Notes: generated by a model not told the origin, from the sequence alone. A stretch of 64,000 nt of DNA from Deltaproteobacteria bacterium (GCA_038133845.1 JAYPUA010000007.1:7042-71041), one strand, 5' to 3'. Numbered from the stretch's first letter, positions 33,301 through 47,696 are shown. Translations and numbers: made by a program.

Positions 33301-34008
33301 ATGCGACTTTCCCTGCTGATGGAGTCTCAGCCTGATGACGTGACCTGTGGGCCGACTAGCCTGCATGCCGTCTACCGCTTCCTGGGAGACCCCATTTCCT
33401 TGCCCTCTCTGATTCAGCGCATCAATCAGCTTGAAGACGGAGGGACCTTGGCGGTGCTTCTGGGGATCGATGCGCTGCGGCAAGGGTATCAGGCGACTTT
33501 GCACTCCTTCAACCTCCAGCTCTTTGATCCAAGCTGGTCGATCCTCTCTGCCAGTGAACTGGCTGAGAAGCTCAAGCTGCAGCTGCACTTCAAGAAAGGC
33601 AAGAAGTTTACCTTGGCCACGGAGGCGTACCGGGAGTTTGTCCTCAGTGGAGGACAGCTTCGGCTGGAGCCCTTGAGCCGAGGACTTCTCCAGAAGTACC
33701 TCTCCCGGAAGCTCCCGATCCTGACGGGGCTCAGTGCGACCTATCTCTACCAGTCAAAACGCGAGTACACCAACGCCCGGGATCAGTCTGTGTTCGACGA
33801 CTTGAGAGGGGAGCCGATGGGGCATTTTGTGGTGATCCACGGAATGGAGCAAAACACGGTCTTTGTGGCAGACCCCTACCACGCGAACCCCCTCTCTCAG
33901 GACAACTACTACGAGGTCGATGTGGAGCAACTGATGCAGGCCATCATGCTTGGTGTCATGACCTACGATGGCAACCTCTTGATTCTTTCCTCTTCCCCGG
34001 AGACCTGA
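33301..34008 (+). CDS. Papain-fold / peptidase C39-like (BtrH_N-like) cysteine peptidase or transferase domain protein
   Basis: Candidate catalytic Cys in DDVTCGPTSLHAV, His in GHFVVIHG followed by VFVADPYH (the C39 / papain-like C...H...D arrangement). 235 aa. Its stop overlaps the next gene's start (TGATG). Confidence 0.55.
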   Translation: MRLSLLMESQPDDVTCGPTSLHAVYRFLGDPISLPSLIQRINQLEDGGTLAVLLGIDALRQGYQATLHSFNLQLFDPSWSILSASELAEKLKLQLHFKKGKKFTLATEAYREFVLSGGQLRLEPLSRGLLQKYLSRKLPILTGLSATYLYQSKREYTNARDQSVFDDLRGEPMGHFVVIHGMEQNTVFVADPYHANPLSQDNYYEVDVEQLMQAIMLGVMTYDGNLLILSSSPET

Positions 34009-35486
34009 TGCGCAAACTGTTGGTCGTGGATCAACCCGACCATTTCAAACTTCCCATCGAAGGAGTGGGCGTGGTTTCGGCCAAGGCCTACCTGACCCAG
34101 CCCGAGTTCAGTCAGCTCCCCAACCTGCGAGTGTTCAACCTGTGCAACGACTACCGCTACCAGTCCAAGGGATACTACGTGTCGCTGCTGGCAGAGGCAA
34201 GGGGACACAACCCGATTCCCAGCGTGAAGAATCTGCAAGACCTGCAGGCTCCCACGCTGTTTCGTAGCGTTAGCGACGACCTCGACACGCTGGTGCAAAA
34301 GTCCTTGCGCAAGCTCAAATCGGAAGAGTTTACGCTGAGCATCTACTTCGGACGAAACCTCGCCAAGCAGTATGAGCGGCTCTGTATGGAGCTGCACCGC
34401 CTGTTCCCGATGCCCTTCCTCCGGGTTCGGTTCATCAAGCAGAAGAAGCGCCTGCACACGGACTCTGAAACCTGGACCTTGCAGCAGGTCAAGGCCATCG
34501 CGTTCCGGGACATCCCGGAGTCTCACCTGGACCTGGTCATGGAGGCGGCCCAACGCTACTTCGGGCGCAAGCGCTACCAGGCGGCCAAGCCCACTCAGTA
34601 TGAGTACGATCTGGCAATTCTGGTGAATCGAGAAGAAAAGGCGGCCCCTTCGGATGCGGAGGCGCTGGAGAAGTTTGCAGAGGCGGCCACACGCCTCAAA
34701 GCCAGCGTGACCTTCGTTGACCGAGACGACTTGCACCGGATTGCCGAGTTCGACGCCTTGCTGATTCGTGAAACCACCAACGTCAACCACCACACCTACC
34801 GCTTCGCCCGCCGTGCTCAGGCAGAGGGACTTGCGGTGATTGACGACCCGGACTCCATCCTCCGTTGCACCAACAAGGTCTACCTGGCCGAGTTGCTCCA
34901 GCAGGGAAAGGTTCCGATTCCCAAGGGGATGGTGGTCCATTCGGAAAATCGTCAGACCGTCGGGGCCATTCTTGGATTTCCCTGTGTCCTCAAGCTCCCG
35001 GACTCTTCCTTCTCGCAAGGTGTGATCAAGGTTCGCGACGAGGCCGAACTGAAGGTTCACCTGCAGAAGATGTTCGCTCAGTCGGAGCTGGTTCTGGCGC
35101 AGGAGTACATGCCCACGGATTTCGATTGGCGGATCGGGGTGCTTGATGGGAAGCCGCTGTTTGCCTGCAAGTACTTCATGGCTCGCGGGCATTGGCAGAT
35201 CTACAACTGGGGGAGCCAGGATTCTGATGGACAGAGCGGGGAGTTCGAGACCATTGCTGTGGAGGATGCTCCAGACTATGTGGTCCGGACCGCGCTCAAG
35301 GCTGCTCGCCTGATTGGAAATGGGCTCTATGGCGTGGACCTGAAGGAGGTCCGAGGCAAGGCCTATGTCGTGGAAGTGAACGACAACCCGAACATCGACC
35401 ACCGCGTGGAGGATCTGATACTTGGAGACGAGATCTACCGCCGGGTTCTGAGCCACCTGTTTCAACAGATTGAGCAAAAATCATGA
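34008..35486 (+). CDS. RimK-type ATP-grasp ligase with a roughly 200 aa N-terminal RLAN-like domain
   Basis: C-terminal 290 aa has ATP-grasp motifs (FPCVLKLPDSSFSQGV, GLYGVDLKEVRGKAYVVEVNDNP). A long conserved-looking N-terminal extension is consistent with the RimK-like ATP-grasp N-terminal domain architecture. Confidence 0.8.
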   Translation: MRKLLVVDQPDHFKLPIEGVGVVSAKAYLTQPEFSQLPNLRVFNLCNDYRYQSKGYYVSLLAEARGHNPIPSVKNLQDLQAPTLFRSVSDDLDTLVQKSLRKLKSEEFTLSIYFGRNLAKQYERLCMELHRLFPMPFLRVRFIKQKKRLHTDSETWTLQQVKAIAFRDIPESHLDLVMEAAQRYFGRKRYQAAKPTQYEYDLAILVNREEKAAPSDAEALEKFAEAATRLKASVTFVDRDDLHRIAEFDALLIRETTNVNHHTYRFARRAQAEGLAVIDDPDSILRCTNKVYLAELLQQGKVPIPKGMVVHSENRQTVGAILGFPCVLKLPDSSFSQGVIKVRDEAELKVHLQKMFAQSELVLAQEYMPTDFDWRIGVLDGKPLFACKYFMARGHWQIYNWGSQDSDGQSGEFETIAVEDAPDYVVRTALKAARLIGNGLYGVDLKEVRGKAYVVEVNDNPNIDHRVEDLILGDEIYRRVLSHLFQQIEQKS

Positions 35487-36694
35487 GTGAGTATTCGCTG
35501 TTCGAGGTCTTTGGCGTGGAGATGGAGTTCATGGTGGTGGACCGGAACTCACTGAACGTCCGCCCGGTGGTGGATCGCCTGATTGAAGCCAAGCTCGGGG
35601 CTCCGGAATCGGATGTGGAGAACGGGGTGATCGACTGGTCGAACGAGCTGGTCAATCACGTGGTTGAACTGAAGTACCACGAACCCTACGCCTCCCTCGC
35701 CTTGGGAGCTGATTTTCATCAAAACGTTCAGGAGATCAATCAGCGTCTGGAGAGCCTGGACGCGATGCTCCTGCCTACCGGAGCCCATCCGTGGATGGAT
35801 CCAAACACAGAGACCCAGTTGTGGCCCCACGAACACAGCCAGATCTATCGCCTTTACAACCGCATCTTCGACTGCCGCGGGCACGGCTGGTCCAACCTCC
35901 AGTCGACTCACCTGAACCTGCCGTTCTCCGGAGACGAGGAGTTTGGCAAGCTGCACGCGGCGATTCGGGTCATCCTGCCGCTCCTGCCGGCGCTTTCCGC
36001 ATCCACGCCCTTTCTAGATGGACGCGCCACCGGAGTTCTGGACAGTCGATTGGATGTATACCGAACCAACCAAAAGCGCTTTCCGGTAATCACCGGGCTG
36101 GTGGTTCCAGAGCCGGTCTTTACCAAGGCTGACTATCATCGTCAGATCTTTGACCCGATCCGGGAGGTGATTGCCCCATACGATGAGGAGCGCATCCTTG
36201 ATCAGCACTTCCTCAACTCCCGAGGAGCGATTGCCCGTTTTGACCGGGGAGCGATCGAGATCCGGGTGCTGGACCTGCAGGAGTGCCCACAGGTAGACCT
36301 CGCGATCCTGGAAGCAACGGTCCGGGTTCTACGGAAGCTGGTGGCTCAGGACGACCTGATGGAGCGTATCCGGGCCTTCCCTACGGCACGGCTGGCGGAC
36401 CTGCTCCTACGCGTGATCGAGTCCGGGCGTCAGGCGAGTGTGGAGTGGCCAGAGCTGAACGAGGTGCTTGGCGTCGAAGCCTCCGCGACCACTGTCGGGG
36501 CGCTTTGGGAGGGAGCCCTGCGCGACGAGCCCTTTTCTCCGGAGGTGAGCTCCTGCCTGAGTCGGCTACAGGAACACGGATCGCTCTCAGAGCGAATTCT
36601 GCGCAGGCTTCCTCCAGATCCGCCGCGTGAGGCCCTGGTTGAGGTCTACCGCGAACTCGCAGCCTGCTTGCAACGAAACGAGATGCTGTCATGA
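35483..36694 (+). CDS. GCS2 / YbdK-family carboxylate-amine ligase (glutamate-cysteine ligase family 2)
   Basis: MEFMVVDRNS... N-terminus and overall pattern parallel E. coli YbdK (GIELEMQVV...). 403 aa. ATGA overlaps on both sides. Confidence 0.8.
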   Translation: MSEYSLFEVFGVEMEFMVVDRNSLNVRPVVDRLIEAKLGAPESDVENGVIDWSNELVNHVVELKYHEPYASLALGADFHQNVQEINQRLESLDAMLLPTGAHPWMDPNTETQLWPHEHSQIYRLYNRIFDCRGHGWSNLQSTHLNLPFSGDEEFGKLHAAIRVILPLLPALSASTPFLDGRATGVLDSRLDVYRTNQKRFPVITGLVVPEPVFTKADYHRQIFDPIREVIAPYDEERILDQHFLNSRGAIARFDRGAIEIRVLDLQECPQVDLAILEATVRVLRKLVAQDDLMERIRAFPTARLADLLLRVIESGRQASVEWPELNEVLGVEASATTVGALWEGALRDEPFSPEVSSCLSRLQEHGSLSERILRRLPPDPPREALVEVYRELAACLQRNEMLS

Positions 36695-39600
36695 ACCCAA
36701 TCCTCCTGGCAACGGAGAACTACCCCTTTCTCGCGGAATTTCGCCTGCTGGAAGATGCAGAAGACCGGGAGCAGCACCTTGATCGAATGCGCGTCTTGCT
36801 CCGGGAAAATCAGTCTCAGGAGGACGTGAGGGATGTGATTGAACACCTGGCTTTGAGAGAGCAGGTGTTTGCCCGGGTGGTTGCCGAGTACCACCGGGAG
36901 GAGCGTGAGGCTGCGATTCAGGCCAATCTCTCGGTGAAGAACTCCTTCCACATCCTGGCCCGCAACACGCACCTGCTCGATGCCATCCTGGCCATGGCGT
37001 TTGAGTACAGCCTGGAAGACCTTCCGGCCATCCGGGAAAACCTGGTGGAGCAGCTCCGCAAGGAGATCGACTACAAGCACCGGATGCTTCCGGAGAAGCG
37101 TGAGAAGTGCGAGATCCTGAAGCAGGAACTAGGGCAGTACAGCAAGCCCAGCACCACAGAGATGCGGCAACTGCAGAAGTACTACCAGCGCATCTACGAC
37201 GATCAGATGAAGGAGGTGAGCGTCCTGGAGGCTCGCCTTGAGGAGCTGCGGGAATCCTTGCCGCAGCTGGAAAAATGTGAGCTGAGCCGAGACTTTCTGT
37301 TGGGGCATATGGTGGTCTTTGCACGAGGAGGGTACGGACGCGCCGAGCTGAGCTTCGCTTCGGATCGTGACCTCGGGTACTGTGTAGACACACAGTCGCT
37401 CAACGCGGGTGAAACGGAAACCTGTCGCCAGCTGATCATGCGTATGGAGTACCTGCTCCGGGAAGCTGGAGTTCAGACTGCACATCAGTACTTTGAGATT
37501 GATGAAGACCTCTCCCGCTTCAGCGAACCCAACTCCGTCCACACCATCCCCTCGATTCTGGAGAGCCGGGTGCTTCTGGGAAGTCAGTCGCTATCGGAGG
37601 CCCTCAAGCGCCGCTTCTTCCACATCCTGCCTTACGAACCCTATGTCCTGAACAAGCTGGAGGAGTATCAGAACAGCCACCAGCCCACGCTCAACGAGAT
37701 GGACATCAAGGAGGACTTTGGCGGGTTGCGCACGCTGCAGGTCCCCCTGTGGATTGCGGCGGCGACCTATGGCGTCTTTCCTAGTCAGACCGCCGACCTG
37801 CTGGCCTTGATGATCCAGAAGCGCATCCTGTCTCCCCGGCAAGGCTACAAGCTCTGCCAAGCGCTGGAGTTTCTCTACGACCTGCGCAACTTCAGCGGCG
37901 CGGCACACCACTACTACGACGAGGAAGCCAAGGCCAGCGGGTGCGTGGACCGCAACCTGGAATCGAATGTGATCAACGACAGCCTGGAGCGCCTGTACCT
38001 GCTCAAGCGTCGGCGCTTCCGGAACGTGGACGAGTTCGATCGCTACCGCCTGCAAATGGTGGACAGCATCCGTGCGCTCTCCAGGATGATGCTCCGCAAG
38101 TTGATGGACCGAACCGTGGTCCGGACGTTCTCCGAGTTTCAGCTAGTGGTGCACCTGCGCAAGCGTCGCATTGTGGAGATTCACGCGCTCGAGGGGCTGC
38201 CTCAGGTTCCCTTGGCGCTGATTTTCAGCAACCCGATCGTGCTGTTGGAGCTGTTCATCTACATCGGCCAGTCCGGATACGACCTCTCGGTGGAACTCAA
38301 GGACGAGCTGGCCGAGTTGATCCCGACCCTCACTCAGGAGCGCATTCAGGTCTGCCGAGGGGTGCTCTATCAGAAGTTCACGGAGCTGATGCTGACTCCG
38401 AACACGGCCAGCGCCCTGCGCGTCATGTTCGAGATCAGTGACCCAATCAGCGAATCCAATCTGCCGGACACGCTGATCGGACGCTACATCCCGGAGTGCA
38501 ATCAGATGCGCTTTCTGTTGCGCAACCTGTCCTACCACCAGCACCCGGTCTGCATTCACTCCCTGAACGCGGTGGAGCGCTGCCAGGAAGAGCTGAAGCT
38601 TTTGCGTCAGAACTATCCGGAGCTGCACCACTACCTGAAGCCACAGCATGTCCTGGCGCTCAAGTGGGGCATGCTGTTCCATGACGTGGGCAAGATCGAC
38701 CCCACCTCCCGACATCAGATCTCCGGAACCCTGATTGCCGTTCAGGCACTGGAGCGTCTGGGATACCAGGACCCGGAACTCTTCCGGCTGGTCTCGTTGC
38801 TGATCGCGCACCACATGACCGTGGTTCAGCTGAGCAAGACCTCGGCCTACTTCGACCAGGCTCTGCAGAACTTCTTCGAAGTCGCCGACCGCAGCCTGGT
38901 GAACGTGATTCTGCTTTTCCTGGTCAACATCTCGGACTACAGCGCAGTGAGCGAGTCGAACGCCAGAGACACGCGGCACCTGCGCAACTTCTTTGAAGAG
39001 ACGTACCGGGTGTTCTCGGAGATGCGCTCCAGCGGAGAGGACTCCTTGGACTTCATCCACAGCTACCTGGACAACAAGAAGAGCGACCTGGAGTTCGACA
39101 CCCGCATCGACCTCTTGATCAAACGCAGTCTGCACAACGACTTGGACGAGGAATTGTTCGGACCCTTGGCGGAAACCAGCTCGAAGGAACGGGACCGATT
39201 GCGTCACTCCGAAGAGGAACTCCGGAGGCTGTGGCGGGTGCTCAAGGTGGGCTCTCTCGACTCCAAGGGCATTGATCAGCACACCGACCAGATGATCCGG
39301 ATGATCCGGCAGACCCTGAACAACAGCTCGATCATGGCCCTCACGGAGTCCTTCAACTTCATGATCAACTGGTTCTTCACGGCCTTCCCCAACCGGTTCC
39401 TGCTTAGTGCACCTCCGGATGTTCTGGCACAGAACCTCTCCATCTTTCAGCACATTGATCGCCCAGTGCTGGCCAACGTGCTGACGAATGCTCGGGGATG
39501 GGTGACGGGGCTGCTGATTTATGTCCGTGGGCAGGAGGGCATCCACAGCCGGGTGGCCTATGTGTTGAACAAGCTCAACCTGAACGTGGACTCCGCAAAG

Positions 39601-40095
39601 ATGAACCGCATCTGCTTCCACGAAGGCAACGAGGGCTACTGCTACTTCTTTGAGGTCTCCCGCCAAGGCAACGGGGAGATGATCTTTCCCCGAGACATTG
39701 AATCCGCGATTTTACGCGACTCCCCCCCTCCTCTGCGGATTCAGCCCAGCGAGTTCCGCTACAACACCCGTGTGCTGGTGGAGTATCTGGATGATGATGA
39801 AAAAGGATATCTTGTTTCAGAGCAAGAGCCAAAGACGGAGGGGGCTCCCGGACACTTCTCTCGGCGGCCCGCTCACTACCTGCGGGTCAAGATCACGGTG
39901 GAGGACGCTCCGATGGTGTACTTCAAGATGGCCCACGCCTTTGAGGCGGTCAACGTGCCGATCCAGCAGTCGCTGATTACCACCACCGGACATCAGGTGA
40001 TGGACATGTTCTACATCAACCCGGAAGATCTGGAGCGCCTGCAGCAGTCGGATTTTGAGGAGATCCTGCGCAACACCCTCTCAGTCAGCGGTTGA
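36691..40095 (+). CDS. GlnD-family nucleotidyltransferase / HD phosphohydrolase / ACT-domain protein (1134 aa), uridylyltransferase-like
   Basis: Pol-beta NTase motif FARGGYGRAELSFASDRDLGY. HD motif LFHDVGKID. C-terminal ACT-like region (VYFKMAHAFEAVNVP). The N-terminal extension has a coiled-coil insertion relative to E. coli GlnD. Confidence 0.7.
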   Translation: MNPILLATENYPFLAEFRLLEDAEDREQHLDRMRVLLRENQSQEDVRDVIEHLALREQVFARVVAEYHREEREAAIQANLSVKNSFHILARNTHLLDAILAMAFEYSLEDLPAIRENLVEQLRKEIDYKHRMLPEKREKCEILKQELGQYSKPSTTEMRQLQKYYQRIYDDQMKEVSVLEARLEELRESLPQLEKCELSRDFLLGHMVVFARGGYGRAELSFASDRDLGYCVDTQSLNAGETETCRQLIMRMEYLLREAGVQTAHQYFEIDEDLSRFSEPNSVHTIPSILESRVLLGSQSLSEALKRRFFHILPYEPYVLNKLEEYQNSHQPTLNEMDIKEDFGGLRTLQVPLWIAAATYGVFPSQTADLLALMIQKRILSPRQGYKLCQALEFLYDLRNFSGAAHHYYDEEAKASGCVDRNLESNVINDSLERLYLLKRRRFRNVDEFDRYRLQMVDSIRALSRMMLRKLMDRTVVRTFSEFQLVVHLRKRRIVEIHALEGLPQVPLALIFSNPIVLLELFIYIGQSGYDLSVELKDELAELIPTLTQERIQVCRGVLYQKFTELMLTPNTASALRVMFEISDPISESNLPDTLIGRYIPECNQMRFLLRNLSYHQHPVCIHSLNAVERCQEELKLLRQNYPELHHYLKPQHVLALKWGMLFHDVGKIDPTSRHQISGTLIAVQALERLGYQDPELFRLVSLLIAHHMTVVQLSKTSAYFDQALQNFFEVADRSLVNVILLFLVNISDYSAVSESNARDTRHLRNFFEETYRVFSEMRSSGEDSLDFIHSYLDNKKSDLEFDTRIDLLIKRSLHNDLDEELFGPLAETSSKERDRLRHSEEELRRLWRVLKVGSLDSKGIDQHTDQMIRMIRQTLNNSSIMALTESFNFMINWFFTAFPNRFLLSAPPDVLAQNLSIFQHIDRPVLANVLTNARGWVTGLLIYVRGQEGIHSRVAYVLNKLNLNVDSAKMNRICFHEGNEGYCYFFEVSRQGNGEMIFPRDIESAILRDSPPPLRIQPSEFRYNTRVLVEYLDDDEKGYLVSEQEPKTEGAPGHFSRRPAHYLRVKITVEDAPMVYFKMAHAFEAVNVPIQQSLITTTGHQVMDMFYINPEDLERLQQSDFEEILRNTLSVSG

Positions 40096-41432: not shown

Positions 41433-42782
41433 ATGAACAGAACGAACTCAGGAGTGCTGACCTTGTTGCTGCTGGCTTTGCTGAGTCTCCTCGGAGGCTC
41501 GCTGCAGGCTCAGGATCAGGGAGACATGCAGCAGAGGGTGGACGAACTGTCAGAGACGCCGACTCGGGAAATCCTCAAGGCCGCTCAGGAGCGCGAAGGA
41601 GACTTTCAGGCCCGTCTGGAGTCTTCCGGGCCTGAGGAGATTCTGGTGTACACCACCGCTCCGCCGGTCACCAGACAGTCTACGGGGAGGCTGGTCCTGA
41701 ACATCAGCTCGTTTGCGTCGCTCTCCCGGGTCCGGGTCAACCAGGAGTTGGTCCTTCTGGATGCCGGGACGTTCGACACGGCCCTGGAGTTTGCGTACAC
41801 CCTGGCTCCGGGAGAGAACCTGTTCAACACCCGGGTCGAGTCTGAATCCGGCGTGCTGGAAAAGACCTTCAAGATCTTTTTGGAGACCGATGAGGTGAAG
41901 TATCAGGATCCGGCCAAGGCGCGCAAGTCGAGCTTCTCCTTCATCACGATTGCCGGGGTCGCCCGGGATGACAACATCAACAGTGCCTCAAGCGATCCCA
42001 AGGCGGCGACCAAGAGCAGCCTGACTCTGGTGGCTGTGAAGCAAATTGCCACTGGCTACACCTCTGCTGTGGTCCTGACCGGGATTGTCAATGCCGATGA
42101 CCAGTGGAATTCGGAGTATAGCTCTCGGGAGATCCTGTTCCGGCAGTTCAGCGCAGACTGGAACGACTCCGCGCTTGCCTGGGGAGACCTGACGGTGGGG
42201 CTGGGCTACAACGAGGTGGGACTGAGTGACCTCTCCCGGGCTTCCGGCCTCAGAGACTCCTGGAATGGGAGCTACAAGCAGGGAGGCAGCGAGACCTTCG
42301 CCGGGTTGCAGTTGAAGGTTCCTTTTGAAGGGGAGTTGCAGTGGACCTCTTCCCTGCGCCTGGGAATCAAAACCAACCCGGGAGTTGCCGAGAAGGATCG
42401 GACCAACAAGCTGGGGCAGAAGCTGGACTTTCAGTACCTGGGGCAGAAATGGAACTGGGCCGGAGAGTACTCGACCACAGACACTCCGCTGGACAGCACT
42501 GACTCCCGGACATTCAGCACGACCCTGAAGGCAAGCCTGCCGATCAAGCCGCTGAAGTTCGGATTCCAGCTGGGATATTCGGATACTCAGAACAAGGCAG
42601 AGGATGCGACGGGGATACGCAAGAAAAGCTCGAAAGCCTCCGGAACATTTTCTGTGAGCTATCCCTTGAAGCCCACCGTGATTTTGGACTTTTCGCACAA
42701 GTACGAGGTCCAGCAGACCAACGTTTCCGGGTCTGACTACCGCAAGAACCTGGATACCCTGAACCTGACTCTGGTGTTTTGA
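41433..42782 (+). CDS. Outer-membrane beta-barrel protein, hypothetical
   Basis: Signal peptide LTLLLLALLSLLGGSLQA, amphipathic strand pattern, C-terminal ...LNLTLVF. The track ORF begins at a TTG at 41427, and the ATG at 41433 is preferred. Confidence 0.6.
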   Translation: MNRTNSGVLTLLLLALLSLLGGSLQAQDQGDMQQRVDELSETPTREILKAAQEREGDFQARLESSGPEEILVYTTAPPVTRQSTGRLVLNISSFASLSRVRVNQELVLLDAGTFDTALEFAYTLAPGENLFNTRVESESGVLEKTFKIFLETDEVKYQDPAKARKSSFSFITIAGVARDDNINSASSDPKAATKSSLTLVAVKQIATGYTSAVVLTGIVNADDQWNSEYSSREILFRQFSADWNDSALAWGDLTVGLGYNEVGLSDLSRASGLRDSWNGSYKQGGSETFAGLQLKVPFEGELQWTSSLRLGIKTNPGVAEKDRTNKLGQKLDFQYLGQKWNWAGEYSTTDTPLDSTDSRTFSTTLKASLPIKPLKFGFQLGYSDTQNKAEDATGIRKKSSKASGTFSVSYPLKPTVILDFSHKYEVQQTNVSGSDYRKNLDTLNLTLVF

Positions 42783-42784
42783 AC

Positions 42785-43756
42785 ATGCGATACCTGCTCT
42801 CTGTCCTGCTCCTGCTGACGATCGGCTCTTCCGTGTTTGCCCAGGAGTCTTTTGTCCGGTTGCTCTCCGGGCGCCTCAAGCTTCAGTTGGGTCCCCAAGC
42901 CCGCTTCCTGACGCATCAGGATGCGCAAAATCCGCTTGAGGTCAAGCTGCTGGTGGGAGAGCGGATCCAAACGGGCAAGGACACCCAGGCCGAAGTCTCC
43001 TTGAGAGGCGGCGAAGAGGTGATTCAGCTTCGCTCCGGATCCCTGTTCACCGTCAACGACCTGAGCGAGAAACAGACGAAGCTCTCGATGCCGATTGGGA
43101 AGGCCAAGTTCAAGGTGGACCCTAAGCGAAAGCTCAAGCGAGGGTTTCAGGTCCGGACGACCACGGCCATCATTGGAGTTCGAGGGACGGAGTTTGTCAT
43201 GGGCGCCGGGGAGGGGCAGACCAGCATGCTGACCCTCTCGGGTGCCGTCGAGATGGCCTCTGTGGAGGCTCCGGCGGTCAAGGTCCGGGTCAACATCGGG
43301 CAGGCCAGTAAGCTGGTGGTCGGCAAGGCTCCAACTCCTCCGGTTTCCGTTCCTCCGGAGCTGCGGACTTCCATCGCAGAGGGCGACTCCACCGAGTCCT
43401 TCGAGGTCGTCTCCTTCCCTCCGGCTCAAGATATTGAGGAGGCCGCTGCAGAACAAGAGCAGGCCCAGGACGCCGAAGAAGAACCGAAACAAGACGCCGA
43501 AGAAGAGGACAACCCGGAGGAAGAACCCACTGATGAGGCTCCAGCGGAAGACGACGCGCTTCCCGCAGAAGAGGAGCCTGCCATGGAGACCCCAGAGCTG
43601 GAGGCCCCGGAGGAAATCGAGATCGACCTTGGAGAGCTGGACGTCCTGAATGACCTGCTTGAAGAGGTAAACGATACGGTGAATGATGCGGTCGAAGAGG
43701 CTGCTGAAGAAGCTGCCGAGACGGAGCGCACCATAAAAATCAACATCAACGAGTAA
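42785..43756 (+). CDS. Secreted FecR-domain protein with a highly acidic C-terminal tail
   Basis: Signal MRYLLSVLLLLTIGSSVFAQ. FecR-type core (TTAIIGVRGTEF). The C-terminal 100 aa is E/D/P-rich. Starts 2 nt after the upstream OMP stop. Confidence 0.65.
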   Translation: MRYLLSVLLLLTIGSSVFAQESFVRLLSGRLKLQLGPQARFLTHQDAQNPLEVKLLVGERIQTGKDTQAEVSLRGGEEVIQLRSGSLFTVNDLSEKQTKLSMPIGKAKFKVDPKRKLKRGFQVRTTTAIIGVRGTEFVMGAGEGQTSMLTLSGAVEMASVEAPAVKVRVNIGQASKLVVGKAPTPPVSVPPELRTSIAEGDSTESFEVVSFPPAQDIEEAAAEQEQAQDAEEEPKQDAEEEDNPEEEPTDEAPAEDDALPAEEEPAMETPELEAPEEIEIDLGELDVLNDLLEEVNDTVNDAVEEAAEEAAETERTIKININE

Positions 43757-43761
43757 CCACG

Positions 43762-45111
43762 ATGTCTCGAAACTACCTGCTCTTGCTGATGTTCCTTGCC
43801 GGATCGCTGGGGATTTTGAACTCCTGCGGCGACATCCCGGATGAATCTCCAAATTCGGTCAAGGTCTCGCTGGGAGTGAGCGACCATGCCCACCGGTCCA
43901 GAAACCTGGGGCGTTGGCCCTTCCGCTCAAACGCAGCCCTAGAGCTTTCATCGACTGACCAAGGGGTGGCCTACCTGTTTCAGACCTCTGCCTTTGACCT
44001 CACTCAGGAAAACGTCTCAGACCCAAGAGAGCTTGCCTACTCTTACGGAGACTACACCAGAACAAGCGGTCTCTCCGGAAGTGCTGAATTGACAGCTCCC
44101 ATAGGCGAGGAGGTCTTTGTTGCAGTGGGCTTCTCCGATGCTCAGGGTCAAGGGATTGGCCACTTCTTCACTCAGCCCTTTACCGTCTCCAGCAGCCAAA
44201 CATCGATTACAACCCAGATCGATCAGGTATTTTTGGACAACACCACGTCAGGAGGAGACAACTCCACAACGGACAACACGACTTCCAATCCTCCACCAAG
44301 TGGGAGCCCTCCGGCCGGTGTTTTCTATACGTACGACGATGGAATTAGCCTGAACGTTGCGACCTGGGACAACCAGAGCGCGAACTCCATCAATTTGTAC
44401 TCACCGGAAGCCCTGGATAACTCCAGCGTCGCCGTTGGAGCGTCGTGTAGTGCAAGTGATTCGATTGTGCTCCATGACAACGCGACAAATCAGTGCATCT
44501 CGTTGTCGCTGGCGTCTTCCGGGTACCCCATGGACAACGCAAGCAACGGGATGTACTTCAACTACTCCACAGCCACTGCTCTTCAGGCTGGGCAGGATTA
44601 TGCGCTCCAGCTCTCCAGCAGTATCCTGTATGACAACGGGAGCGCAGCCTTCCCCAGCGGCAAGGAGATCGCCTTCCGCCTTGTCTTCAAACCTTATGCG
44701 CCTTGGCCTCCGACAGAAAGCATCTCCATTTCAGGATCACCGCCTTCAATGGTCAGTTTGGGAGGGAACAGCTGGGATAGCTACTCTCTGACAGAACTGT
44801 ACCCGAGTATCCAGGCTCAGAGCATCAACCCATCCACAGTGAACACCTCAGAGAGCACAACGTGCTCAGGCTCGCTTCAACTGTACGACAACGCGAGCAA
44901 CGCATGCATCGGGCTGACGCTGACAGGCACACACTATCCTGACGATTCTGGGTCATATTTGAACATCGATGCCTTCGCCAAGCAGTCACTGGTTCGAGGG
45001 AACGATTACGCCTTGATCTTCACGGATGCAATTCAGTATGACAACGGAAGCAGCGTCTTTCCTTCCGGAGCGACGGTGAACTTTCAGGCTGTGGAGTTTG
45101 TGGAGTATTGA
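43762..45111 (+). CDS. Lipoprotein with a tandem roughly 105 aa repeat
   Basis: Lipobox LGILNSC. Two internal repeats, each with a Cys pair and LYDNxSN / YDNGS motifs, at roughly aa 200-308 and 340-446. Confidence 0.6.
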   Translation: MSRNYLLLLMFLAGSLGILNSCGDIPDESPNSVKVSLGVSDHAHRSRNLGRWPFRSNAALELSSTDQGVAYLFQTSAFDLTQENVSDPRELAYSYGDYTRTSGLSGSAELTAPIGEEVFVAVGFSDAQGQGIGHFFTQPFTVSSSQTSITTQIDQVFLDNTTSGGDNSTTDNTTSNPPPSGSPPAGVFYTYDDGISLNVATWDNQSANSINLYSPEALDNSSVAVGASCSASDSIVLHDNATNQCISLSLASSGYPMDNASNGMYFNYSTATALQAGQDYALQLSSSILYDNGSAAFPSGKEIAFRLVFKPYAPWPPTESISISGSPPSMVSLGGNSWDSYSLTELYPSIQAQSINPSTVNTSESTTCSGSLQLYDNASNACIGLTLTGTHYPDDSGSYLNIDAFAKQSLVRGNDYALIFTDAIQYDNGSSVFPSGATVNFQAVEFVEY

Positions 45112-45147
45112 ACTCAACAGGAGCGAGAGGGAAGGGCTTGAGGAGGG

Positions 45148-45483
45148 TTACCTCGGTTTTTCCGGGTAGATGGTCTTCATTCTGGTTTTGATGGGAGGGG
45201 GGAACTTGCGGCGCTCTTCCACGTGCTTTTGCATCTTGTCGTAGTCCAAGACATCCGGCTCGGTGCTGAAGAAAGAGGACTTGCTGCTGTTGTCCATGGT
45301 CGCGAGGGCTTTTTTCAGGCGTCCGTAGGCTGGGTCGGCCTCAACGCGTTGGCGGAGTCGGTCGTAGTTGAGCGGAGGGTTGACGGTGCCAAAGGCCGGA
45401 GGCACCTGAGCGCTGGGGGAGGGTGCTCCGGCAAGCAGCAGGATTCCACTCAGAGTCAGACAGAGGATAAAACGAGCGCGCAT
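45148..45483 (-). CDS. Small secreted protein, hypothetical
   Basis: Signal peptide MRARFILCLTLSGILLLAGAPSPSAQ. 111 aa. Confidence 0.45.
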   Translation of the reverse strand: MRARFILCLTLSGILLLAGAPSPSAQVPPAFGTVNPPLNYDRLRQRVEADPAYGRLKKALATMDNSSKSSFFSTEPDVLDYDKMQKHVEERRKFPPPIKTRMKTIYPEKPR

Positions 45484-45498: not shown

Positions 45499-45696
45499 TC
45501 AATCTCTGTACCGAGCGGGGGCCCGGCATTCGTCAAACTTTTGGGGCGTGTAGCTGTAGGCGGTGCCACGGGTCTGGCGATCCTCTTCCAGAGCAGGAAG
45601 GCAGGCCTCATAGTTTTGGGAATCGTAGGATCGCAGGGTTCCGCACCCTCCAAGCAGCAGCAATGCAGGAATCCATCCCCACTTCAGGAGCGACAT
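45499..45696 (-). CDS. Small putative lipoprotein (65 aa)
   Basis: MSLLKWGWIPALLLLGGCG lipobox. Overlaps the 3' end of the cysteine desulfurase gene by about 13 nt in a different frame, so it is uncertain. Confidence 0.3.
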   Translation of the reverse strand: MSLLKWGWIPALLLLGGCGTLRSYDSQNYEACLPALEEDRQTRGTAYSYTPQKFDECRAPARYRD

Positions 45697-46847
45697 TGTT
45701 TTTTCCTGTACAGGCGGTGTACGTGATGCTCCAGCCGATTGCTGAGACGTTCGACCTCGGAGGTGGTGGTGTTCCACCCCAGGCTGACTCTTAGGCTGGC
45801 CTTGGCTTGCTCCCGGGAGCGTCCCTGAGCGAGCAGCACCGGGCTGGCTTCCAGAGCACCGGAAGAGCAGGCGGATCCAGTCGAAATCGAAACCCCCTCC
45901 AGATCTAGGGCAATCACCAGAGTCTCGGCACTGAGCCCTTCAAATCCGAAATTCAGCACATGCGGGAGGCCGCTTTTTTCCGGAGGGCTGTTCCGAAAGA
46001 ACCCCGGGAGCCTTCCCAGCCGGGACCACAGCTCTCGAGAGAGTTCCTGGTGTTTCCGGGCCAGGGCCTCCTGGTGCGTGGTGTACCACTCCACAGCCTG
46101 GGCAAAGCCACAGGCCAGCAAGACGCTCTCTGTTCCTGCGCGCCGTACGCGTTCCTGCTTGCCTCCGAAGAGCAAGGGATGCAGCGGCGTACCTTGGCGG
46201 ATGTAAAGCAGCCCGATTCCCCGGGGGCCGCCCAGCTTGTGAGCTGTCGCGGTAGCGTAGTCGAACGGAGCGAGATCAAGCGCCTGCTTGCCGAGCACCT
46301 GCGTGGCATCCGTGTGAAACAGGATCTGCTGGCTTCGGCAGAGTTGCGCCAAATCGGACACAGGCTGCAGGGCTCCGGTTTCGTTGTTTGCCGCCATCAC
46401 GGAGACCAGTCGGGTGTCCGGACTGAGCACCTCCCGAAGCTCCTCGGCCAGCACCACTCCGTGCTCATCCACCCTCAACAGGTGAACCTGCACCCCGGCG
46501 TGCGCCTTCAGGTCCCGGACGGCCTCCAGCACGGAGGGGTGTTCGATGGAGGAGGTGACCAGGTGCCGAGGTTCCGGGTGCTGAAGAATCTGCCGAATCG
46601 CCGTGTTGTTGCTCTCGCTCCCTCCGCTGGTGAACAGCAGCTCCTGAGCGGAGACCCCCAGTTGGCGCGCAATTCGCTTGCGTGAAGTCTCCAGCAGCGT
46701 CCGTGCGTCACGCCCTTCCCGGTGAGGGCTGGAGGGGTTGCCAAAAGCACCCATTGCCTCCAGCATCGCCTCCCGGACTTCCGGAAGCAGCGGAGTCGTG
46801 GCATTATGGTCGAGATAGGCAGATGTCTCGGATCCGTTATTCTTCAT
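45684..46847 (-). CDS. Cysteine desulfurase (NifS/IscS class V aminotransferase)
   Basis: Conserved PLP-lysine region (TATAHKLGGPRGIG) and catalytic-Cys region (SISTGSACSSG). 387 aa. Confidence 0.88.
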   Translation of the reverse strand: MKNNGSETSAYLDHNATTPLLPEVREAMLEAMGAFGNPSSPHREGRDARTLLETSRKRIARQLGVSAQELLFTSGGSESNNTAIRQILQHPEPRHLVTSSIEHPSVLEAVRDLKAHAGVQVHLLRVDEHGVVLAEELREVLSPDTRLVSVMAANNETGALQPVSDLAQLCRSQQILFHTDATQVLGKQALDLAPFDYATATAHKLGGPRGIGLLYIRQGTPLHPLLFGGKQERVRRAGTESVLLACGFAQAVEWYTTHQEALARKHQELSRELWSRLGRLPGFFRNSPPEKSGLPHVLNFGFEGLSAETLVIALDLEGVSISTGSACSSGALEASPVLLAQGRSREQAKASLRVSLGWNTTTSEVERLSNRLEHHVHRLYRKKQCRS

Positions 46848-46862
46848 TCAAAGAGTGCGTTC

Positions 46863-47696
46863 ATGCGTGGGTTTTTCGTCTTTTGGCTCTGTTGCTGGAG
46901 CACCGTCCTCTGGGCCCAGGGCACCGATTTCTTCTTCACGCCGAAGCCCGAACCCCCTGTACCGCCTCCGGTGGTCACACCGGAGCCGCCACCGCCGCCG
47001 AAACCTGAGCCTCTCCCGGAGCCGCCTCCCGCACCGCCACCTGTCCCGGAGGCCGTGGAGCCACCTTCAACGTCGATCTCGGATGTGATCTTCCTGCTCG
47101 ACACCTCCGGATCGATGGACGCGTTCCTCTCCGGACAGAGGCAGAGCAAGCTCTCTGCTGCTCAGGAAGCTCTCGACTTCTTCGCACGTCGCATGCAGCC
47201 CGGAACGCGTTTTCAGCTCTGGACCTTTGATTCCCGGGTGCGTCAGCTACCCAACTCTCCCGAGGCTCCGGCCTCCAGAGAGGTCGTGTTTGAGGTGATC
47301 GGACCGGAGGGCTCTGCGGTCCGCAAGCACCTGCAACAGCAGATTGCCGGACTGGAAACCCGAGGCGGAACGAACCTGTATCAGGCTGTGCACCAGGCGA
47401 TCCGCCACTTTGACAGCAGCACCTACCAGGTCCCGGAGAAGGCCATCCGAAAGCAGATCGTGGTGGTGCTCGCAGATGGGCAGGATGACAACCTCTCCGG
47501 GTTCACGCTCCAGCAGGTCCTGCAGGCTCGGCAGCGCTTCCCCGAGGTTCAGGTCCGGACCATCGGGTTCGGGGTGACCCAAAGTGACCCGCTCCAGCAG
47601 GTTCTCTGCCAGATCGCCGGGTCCGCCGAAGCTTGCACGCTGGCAAGGAGCGCTGAGGACCTCACGCAGATCATCCAGTCGTTCACTGAATCGTAA
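46863..47696 (+). CDS. Secreted von Willebrand factor A (VWA) domain protein with a proline-rich linker
   Basis: Signal-like MRGFFVFWLCCWSTVLWAQG. A PEPPxP-rich segment. MIDAS motif DTSGSM and VWA fold features. Start chosen at the internal Met. Confidence 0.65.
   Translation: MRGFFVFWLCCWSTVLWAQGTDFFFTPKPEPPVPPPVVTPEPPPPPKPEPLPEPPPAPPPVPEAVEPPSTSISDVIFLLDTSGSMDAFLSGQRQSKLSAAQEALDFFARRMQPGTRFQLWTFDSRVRQLPNSPEAPASREVVFEVIGPEGSAVRKHLQQQIAGLETRGGTNLYQAVHQAIRHFDSSTYQVPEKAIRKQIVVVLADGQDDNLSGFTLQQVLQARQRFPEVQVRTIGFGVTQSDPLQQVLCQIAGSAEACTLARSAEDLTQIIQSFTES

Follow-up and report, generated by a model that had tools for sequence, protein, structure and literature searches.

A co-conserved three-gene envelope cassette of a predicted 14-strand barrel, a secreted FecR-domain protein and a modular lipoprotein in uncultured deltaproteobacteria-like lineages

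We describe here a cassette of three co-directional open reading frames (ORFs; 41433-45111, plus strand, 3.7 kb) found in a stretch of 64,000 nucleotides (nt) from a Deltaproteobacteria bacterium (GCA_038133845.1, JAYPUA010000007.1:7042-71041), hereafter the window, from whose first letter positions are counted. All three encode exported proteins, namely an outer-membrane beta-barrel protein (gene 1), a secreted FecR-domain protein (gene 2) and a lipoprotein (gene 3). The cassette is a real, strongly co-conserved and uncharacterised envelope unit of uncultured lineages, and a literature search returned no description of a barrel-FecR-lipoprotein triad. The NCBI product names, given on a contig of a metagenome-assembled genome (MAG; GCA_049459615.1), are hypothetical protein for genes 1 and 3 and FecR family protein for gene 2. 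Concerning its function, we propose that the cassette is an outer-membrane module which delivers a modular lipoprotein to the cell surface, holds it there, or does both; in our judgement this proposal stands about evenly between right and wrong.

The stop codon of gene 1 is separated from the ATG of gene 2 (42785) by 2 nt (AC), and that of gene 2 from the ATG of gene 3 (43762) by 5 nt; these short gaps are consistent with co-transcription. The GC contents of genes 1, 2 and 3 (0.58, 0.60 and 0.54) are close to the window mean of 0.59.

For a scan of a metagenome collection, an alignment of FecR-like proteins served as the only query; the ORFs of the 80 loci obtained were then searched with hidden Markov models (HMMs) of the barrel and FecR-like families. 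In 55 loci, the DNA before the FecR-like gene was long enough (1300 nt or more) to assess whether a barrel lies upstream. A barrel-family gene lay directly upstream and on the same strand in 53 of these 55, with gaps mostly between -4 and about 75 nt. The two loci with no separate upstream barrel gene were L069 and L038, the latter containing both parts. The 640-amino acid (aa) barrel-FecR ORF of L038 (3111-5030, plus strand) was considered as a natural, Rosetta-stone type of fusion and was rejected, as the FecR signal peptide is still in frame; judging from the sequence, the read-through is most likely a frameshift or an assembly artefact. Clustering of the FecR-like proteins at 70% identity gave about 21 lineages, and in 16 of them a lipobox gene adjoins the pair, either directly after the FecR-like gene or directly before the barrel gene. 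Among the others, L079 showed no downstream lipoprotein and had too little upstream DNA, and L038 and L073 were not assessable; the lineages of L023/L033 and L069 are considered below with the points that weigh against our proposal.

In all close relatives of the barrel, a FecR-domain gene follows immediately downstream. One MAG holds two paralogous cassettes, whose barrels are 59% and 42% identical to the window barrel. At a barrel identity of only 22%, locus L012 still presents the same order, with a barrel, a secreted FecR-domain protein (acidic tail, ...ITITIED end) and a lipoprotein of 553 aa. In L002, a 60%-identical relative, the cassette stands between other flanking genes than in the window, which indicates that the three genes move together. 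The relatives are labelled Deltaproteobacteria bacterium or Candidatus Lambdaproteobacteria and, judged from record names, most of the related loci come from aquatic or marine metagenomes. An earlier note on this DNA, made from the sequence alone, had supposed that the triad is functionally linked, and the conservation described here bears this out. It had also raised the possibility that the proteins belong to unrelated well-known families; profile searches placed none of the three in such a family, and searching the PDB by sequence, with each of the proteins and with profiles of the families, gave no meaningful match. Its reading of the locus as three co-directional genes for exported proteins with tiny gaps was correct in all coordinates and features, as were the signal peptide, the E/D/P-rich end and the missing anti-sigma region and transmembrane segment of gene 2 (sequence, Pfam, composition), and the lipobox and tandem internal repeat of gene 3.

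The product of gene 1 starts with a Sec-type signal peptide (...SLQA|QD) and ends with Phe. Its AlphaFold2 model, built on an alignment of six sequences, has a mean predicted local distance difference test score (pLDDT) of 65, with 78-88 in the sandwich and 70-88 in most of the barrel. In this model, three low-confidence helices (residues 4-60) are followed by a beta-sandwich, a linker of 14 residues and 14 strands. Connections between the barrel strands alternate between 2-5 residues on one side and 7-15 on the other, and one of the longer connections shows insertions and deletions among relatives. According to the model, this alternation would place the start of strand 1, and with it the linker, on the periplasmic side, and the sandwich is probably periplasmic. 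In a fold comparison, the closest structural matches of the barrel were the sugar channels CymA, OmpG and chitoporin. By sequence, gene 1 reached the threshold of no Pfam or NCBIfam family and had no relative in the PDB, even with a profile of 42 family sequences. Its sole Pfam match was that of its last 55 residues to BBP2_2 (PF10082; E=0.02, 14.2 bits against a gathering threshold of 23.7).

The barrel family is small and unnamed. It counted 158 proteins at E<=0.001 when the family profile was run with HMMER against 1.84 billion representative proteins; most are 400-470 aa long and share the sandwich-plus-barrel plan. The most frequent weak Pfam matches among 42 members were to Cadherin-like beta-sandwich (PF12733, 14 members), BBP2_2 (13) and Porin_4 (12), and a single member weakly matched Autotransporter (PF03797). 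Some relatives carry extra domains N-terminal to the sandwich and barrel (two or three Big_5, Big_9/cadherin, caspase, PEGA plus Big_5, or Sel1 repeats, the latter in only two distant members). Such N-terminally extended barrels are, for example, P0074 (caspase, Peptidase_C14), P0028/P0029 (Sel1), P0058 (PEGA plus Big_5) and P0046/P0049 (three Big_5). The Big_5-extended barrels of L059, L072 and L088 are partnered by lipoproteins of 1223-1312 aa. Also, in one lineage (L023-L024, L031-L036, L083, L093) the barrels measure 632 aa, of which about 200 form a Cys-containing N-terminal extension, and the gene downstream of its barrel-FecR pair looks like a TlyA-type methyltransferase.

Gene 2 encodes a protein with a cleavable, Sec-type signal peptide (...SVFA|QE) that shows no Tat motif. 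There is no Cys in or after this signal peptide (MRYLLSVLLLLTIGSSVFAQE), and hence no lipobox. Apart from the FecR domain (PF04773), no second Pfam match, no transmembrane segment and no cytoplasmic anti-sigma domain were found in gene 2; the C-terminal STN subdomain (DUF4974) was not detected with Pfam either, and an acidic low-complexity tail stands in its place. The FecR of Escherichia coli cleaves itself at Gly181-Thr182, a reaction thought to proceed by an N-O acyl shift (PMC12036975), and the aligned position in gene 2 is Gly134-Thr135. The corresponding motif GT[EDRQ]F is kept in all 70 unique complete members of the FecR-like family. By analogy with FecR, gene 2 probably cleaves itself at this position.

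Residues 206-323 of gene 2 (118 aa) consist of 40% D/E, 3% K/R and 8% P, with a net charge of -44. The FecR-like relatives are 255-749 aa long, and the differences in length sit in the tail, whose median D/E fraction is 0.32 and in which no further Pfam domain was found. The protein ends with a putative amphipathic strand, AETERTIKININE. In 62 of the 70 unique FecR-like relatives, the last 16 residues include a phi-x-phi-x-phi pattern, against 25% of control ORFs; examples of such ends are ERTIKININE, RRVIIEINYD, LILSMTFTNR and QPVQIVITH. As an idea only, the terminal strand (E-T-E-R-T-I-K-I-N-I in gene 2, Q-P-V-Q-I-V-I-T in a relative) recalls beta-augmentation motifs such as TonB boxes.

In gene 3, the lipobox Cys22 is invariant in the alignment of close lipoprotein relatives. 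No match to gene 3 was found in Pfam, NCBIfam or the PDB. After the family-defining N-terminal domain, modelled with 7 strands at a pLDDT of 60-75, come two head repeats which are 38% identical over 119 aligned positions (E=4e-20). Compared with the orthologue of L002, which carries an NHL propeller in its C-terminal part, the N-terminal domain is 33% identical. A set of other relatives shows about 81% identity in this domain, and there the 180 C-terminal residues bear no relation to the repeats of the window. An iterative HMM search with the window N-terminal domain reached only the nearest lineages. When the first 190 residues after the lipidated Cys were compared between lineages with hhalign, the N-terminal domains of all lineages shared homology over about 130 residues, mostly in register from the Cys, with several pairs of lineages at 94-98% probability. 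The stretch directly after the Cys is acidic in most lineages (for example C-GDIPDES, C-GDLEPEMQD, C-ADVETE), and recalls the acidic lipoprotein export signal of Bacteroidota. The lipoproteins of L014 and L015 also have LNSC lipoboxes.

The heads, on the other hand, are highly diverse among relatives, where the whole lipoproteins range from 322 to at least 1990 aa. We detected Laminin_G_3 (five loci), PA14/GLEYA, NHL, SBBP, Big_5, Big_2, Lcl_C, collagen repeats with DUF7151, and DUF5018. Heads are exchanged even between neighbouring lineages, with PA14 in L025 and Laminin_G_3 in L027. According to their domain assignments, such heads are typically of extracellular adhesin or carbohydrate-binding kinds, and it is mainly for this reason that the lipoproteins are thought to face outward. 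The longest lipoprotein ORF, of at least 1990 aa, directly follows the FecR-like gene of L009 (10293-16262, plus strand) and runs past the end of the locus; a second lipoprotein of L009 is encoded upstream of the barrel and combines a Pro-rich linker with a Cds6_C NTF2-like domain.

From what was observed, namely the linkage of the genes, the anatomy of the domains, the conserved motifs and the swapped heads, we picture the proposed module as follows. The lipoprotein would be lipidated at Cys22 and continue with an acidic tether. Its N-terminal beta-sandwich (about 130 residues) would be the handle recognised by the machine, and its C-terminal head the exchangeable working end, made of two tandem repeats here and of lectin, Ig-like, propeller or collagen-type domains in relatives. 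The 14-strand barrel with its periplasmic cadherin-like sandwich would be the dedicated outer-membrane partner, acting as translocon, as anchor, or as both. FecR binds, through its periplasmic domain, the N-terminal domain that the FecA barrel has in the periplasm (PMC12036975); by analogy, the FecR-fold protein is proposed as a soluble periplasmic partner of the barrel, possibly acting as two fragments after self-cleavage. With its disordered, acidic tail and the beta-strand at the end, this protein might reach another component and dock by strand addition, although we consider any particular role of the tail much less probable than the proposal as a whole.

The earlier note had suggested a small envelope complex of barrel, FecR-like adaptor and surface or periplasmic lipoprotein, possibly a sensor or a module for outer-membrane assembly or tethering. 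The linkage of the three partners is supported by their co-conservation, and the complex itself stays conjectural. As to the place of the lipoprotein, the combination of a conserved, putative docking domain with an exchangeable head of adhesin or lectin type points to surface display rather than to a periplasmic role. The sensor option is disfavoured, since there is no anti-sigma or transmembrane part and no sigma factor, TonB-dependent receptor or kinase nearby.

Several points weigh against our proposal. Contacts and topology are what we infer from sequences and models, and this applies to the physical complex, surface exposure, transport direction, self-cleavage and contacts of the tail. 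The barrel model is of moderate confidence only (pLDDT 65, six aligned sequences), and the lumen of a 14-strand barrel is narrow for the passage of folded domains. The model of the whole lipoprotein (pLDDT 38) is too poor for a fold search; the best hhalign link of the window N-terminal domain, with one group, is at 78% probability (E=1.8e-5), the rest being weak. Also, the window head matches no known domain, and its adhesin nature is extrapolated from relatives. The proposed mechanism offers no explanation for the span of the tail, from about 40 to about 500 residues. Finally, the 12 loci of one lineage (L023/L033, with the 632-aa barrels) keep the barrel and the FecR-like gene together and have no adjacent lipoprotein, and L069 (5962-6840, plus strand) is a true orphan FecR-like gene, with acidic tail and terminal strand, that has neither a barrel nor a lipoprotein as neighbour.

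To our knowledge, few systems that bring lipoproteins to the surface of diderm bacteria and keep them there have been described (Slam, the export signals of Bacteroidota, LptDE-linked routes). The functionally closest known system is Slam, or type XI secretion, which is analogous and not homologous to the cassette. Slam proteins consist of a periplasmic TPR domain and a 14-strand barrel, and about 52% of Slam genes adjoin a lipobox gene (PMC5449769). Similarly, in gene 1 an N-terminal domain, probably periplasmic, precedes a predicted 14-strand barrel, the Sel1 additions of some relatives recall the TPR layout, and the barrel gene lies beside a lipobox gene in most lineages, as in Slam1-TbpB or NilB-NilC. 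In both systems, the lipoproteins carry surface domains of ligand-binding type, and several paralogous pairs per genome are possible. Nevertheless, the Slam domain DUF560 (PF04575) was absent from gene 1 at E<=1 and from 42 family members at E<=0.1 (Pfam), and the N-terminal domain of gene 1 is a cadherin-like sandwich with low-confidence helices rather than a TPR domain. The conserved and presumably recognised part of the lipoprotein is N-terminal here, whereas Slam cargo has a C-terminal TbpB-like barrel. Also, Slam systems have no third partner comparable to the FecR-fold protein, which is obligatory in the cassette.

Gene 2 resembles the sigma regulators FecR, FoxR and PupR in its PF04773 domain and in the Gly-Thr at the position of Gly181-Thr182 of FecR, and its gene is paired, as in FecR-FecA, with an outer-membrane barrel having an extra periplasmic N-terminal domain. 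Unlike these regulators, gene 2 is a soluble secreted protein in which an acidic disordered tail and a terminal strand replace the anti-sigma, transmembrane and STN parts; and unlike the TonB-dependent transducers of FecA type, the partner is a predicted 14-strand barrel that lacks a plug, and no sigma factor is nearby. The cassette does not appear to be a cell-surface signalling system. FecR-domain proteins which are not sigma regulators are known in Leptospira (LipL45, Lsa33, Lsa19). They share the layout of gene 2, in which a signal peptide is followed by a FecR domain (about 60-160) and a C-terminal extension, of about 150 aa in these proteins; for Lsa33, a FecR domain at 60-162 and a function as surface adhesin have been reported (PMC3444417). 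The best NCBIfam matches of gene 2 are LipL45/Lsa33 (NF033165, 43.8 vs. 420 bits; NF047849, 30.1 vs. 350 bits). Unlike these leptospiral lipoproteins, reported as surface adhesins, gene 2 has no lipobox, and by score or by lipidation it is not a member of the LipL45/Lsa33 family. The leptospiral proteins, for their part, are not known to have a barrel or a lipoprotein as partner.

The dedication of one barrel to one lipoprotein or adhesin, with adjacent genes, is also seen in LptD-LptE, OmpA/OmpC-RcsF, SusC-SusD and PorP/SprF-type barrels. As in pairs of the LptD-LptE type, docking of a lipoprotein domain on the barrel, or inside it, is presumed. In contrast with the cassette, none of these systems uses a FecR-fold partner, and the strand numbers of LptD-LptE, OmpA/OmpC-RcsF and SusC-SusD are 26, 8-16 and 22; no sequence relationship with any of the systems was found. 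What is new here is the FecR-fold component, both unusual and obligatory, within a dedicated barrel plus surface-lipoprotein type of system.

Other explanations of the cassette were considered. A mere chance adjacency of three unrelated envelope genes has almost no probability, given the barrel-FecR order in 53 of 55 loci with gaps mostly below 80 nt, and the persistence of the triad at 22% barrel identity and in different genomic flanks. A better candidate, although an unlikely one in our view, would be a TonB-independent, SusCD-like capture and uptake system, in which the barrel is a solute channel, a lectin-headed lipoprotein captures the solute and the FecR-like protein gates or plugs the channel from the periplasm. 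The sugar channels among the top structural matches of the barrel, the one-to-one pairing that recalls SusC/SusD and the many carbohydrate-binding heads (Laminin_G_3, PA14/GLEYA, and DUF5018 of Bacteroidota glycan-binding lipoproteins) agree with such uptake. However, the cassette has no linked genes for glycoside hydrolases, inner-membrane transporters or regulators, and its flanks are unrelated housekeeping genes that differ by locus. Heads of the collagen, Lcl_C, NHL and Big types, found in lipoproteins that reach at least 1990 aa, also resemble adhesins rather than substrate lids.

An envelope signalling device, in which the lipoprotein or the barrel senses a ligand and the FecR-like protein relays the signal through the periplasm, appears to us improbable. 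In its favour, regulators of cell-surface signalling are typified by a FecR domain and by the Gly-Thr self-cleavage motif that is conserved here, the long tail of gene 2 could reach an inner-membrane partner, and the orphan FecR-like gene of L069 lies next to and downstream of a gene for a CheY-like receiver. Yet gene 2 has none of the anti-sigma, transmembrane and STN parts, the barrel lacks a plug or TonB box, and no extracytoplasmic function (ECF) sigma factor, TonB-dependent transducer, kinase or cyclase was found within 10 kb on either side of the cassette; in the related loci as well, no sigma factor, TonB-dependent transducer, kinase or cyclase is conserved beside it. We give equally little credit to an autotransporter-like arrangement, where gene 1 would export the domains N-terminal to its barrel as passengers through that barrel, helped by the FecR-like protein and the lipoprotein as accessory factors. 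Such an arrangement would fit the Big_5, Big_9/cadherin and caspase domains found at this place in relatives, and also the sandwich, of a cadherin-like type that occurs as long arrays in S-layer-type proteins. Against it, the linker of about 14 residues between sandwich and strand 1 is short for a segment spanning the lumen, other relatives carry Sel1 or PEGA, typical periplasmic modules, at the same place, PF03797 gave no match for gene 1 and one weak match among 42 members, and the model has 14 strands and not 12.

A broader form of the delivery or holding proposal is more doubtful than the proposal itself, and we advance it tentatively: the cassette may be a previously unrecognised, self-contained export or anchoring system for surface lipoproteins that uses a FecR-fold protein and a dedicated 14-strand barrel, possibly by way of self-cleavage and strand docking of the tail. 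The FecR fold would then be a general partner of barrels, sigma signalling being one of its uses, and the swappable heads would amount to plug-and-play display of adhesins in abundant, uncultured bacteria of the sea. If true, a third, unrelated barrel family with an obligatory FecR-fold partner would constitute a new solution for surface lipoproteins. It would also offer a testable function outside sigma signalling for the widespread "orphan" FecR-domain proteins, such as LipL45 and Lsa33. The exchangeable lectin or adhesin heads suggest attachment to particles or polysaccharides by uncultured, mostly marine deltaproteobacteria-like lineages, which bears on carbon cycling. As the cassette is compact (three genes, 3.7 kb), these ideas are directly testable by heterologous reconstitution.

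Table 1. Features of the cassette and of the neighbouring region in the window.
Feature	Position	Strand	Basis or remark
Gene 1, outer-membrane protein, 449 aa	41433..42782	+	TGA stop ends 42782
Beta-sandwich domain of gene 1, residues 70-150, probably periplasmic	41640..41882	+	pLDDT 78-88
Predicted 14-strand beta-barrel of gene 1, residues 165-448	41925..42776	+	AlphaFold2 model, fold comparison
Gene 2, secreted FecR-domain protein, 323 aa	42785..43756	+	TAA stop ends 43756
FecR domain (PF04773) of gene 2, residues 60-156	42962..43252	+	Pfam, E=2.5e-14, 53.9 bits (cut-off 24)
Gly134-Thr135 of gene 2, aligned with the self-cleavage site Gly181-Thr182 of E. coli FecR	43184..43189	+	BLASTP alignment
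Acidic low-complexity tail of gene 2, residues 206-310	43400..43714	+	Residues 213-310, 44% D/E
C-terminal amphipathic strand motif of gene 2	43715..43753	+	Pattern count and alignments of relatives
Gene 3, lipoprotein, 449 aa	43762..45111	+	
Type II signal peptide and lipobox of gene 3 (ILNS-C22), followed by acidic GDIPDESPNS	43762..43827	+	Sequence
Conserved N-terminal beta-sandwich domain of the lipoprotein, residues 23-160, family-defining	43828..44241	+	Identities, hhalign, model
Head repeat 1 of gene 3, residues 195-308	44344..44685	+	Self-alignment
Head repeat 2 of gene 3, residues 331-444	44752..45093	+	Self-alignment
Terminator-like hairpin and T-run, 3' of gene 3	45138..45156	+	Weak evidence; only its position is suggestive
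Peptidase_C39-like gene	33301-34008	+	Pfam
RimK/RLAN ATP-grasp gene	34008-35486	+	Pfam
GCS2 carboxylate-amine ligase gene	35483-36694	+	Pfam
GlnD_UR_UTase-like protein gene, 1134 aa	36691-40095	+	Pfam

In the region of the cassette, a promoter scan found none, and a terminator scan gave a number of terminator-like sites, including the hairpin of Table 1, that is not above chance. An Rfam search of the window returned no RNA element. Upstream of the cassette, four tightly overlapping genes assigned with Pfam (33301-40095, plus strand) look like an operon for peptide ligation or modification. Downstream, two small ORFs with no Pfam match on record converge on the cassette (45148-45483 and 45499-45777, both on the minus strand); one encodes 111 aa with a signal peptide, and the other is short, with a lipobox-like LLLLGGC. 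Further downstream (46722-47696, plus strand), a VWA-domain protein with a proline-rich N-terminal region (PEPPVPPPVVTPEPPPPPKPEP...) may also be an envelope protein.

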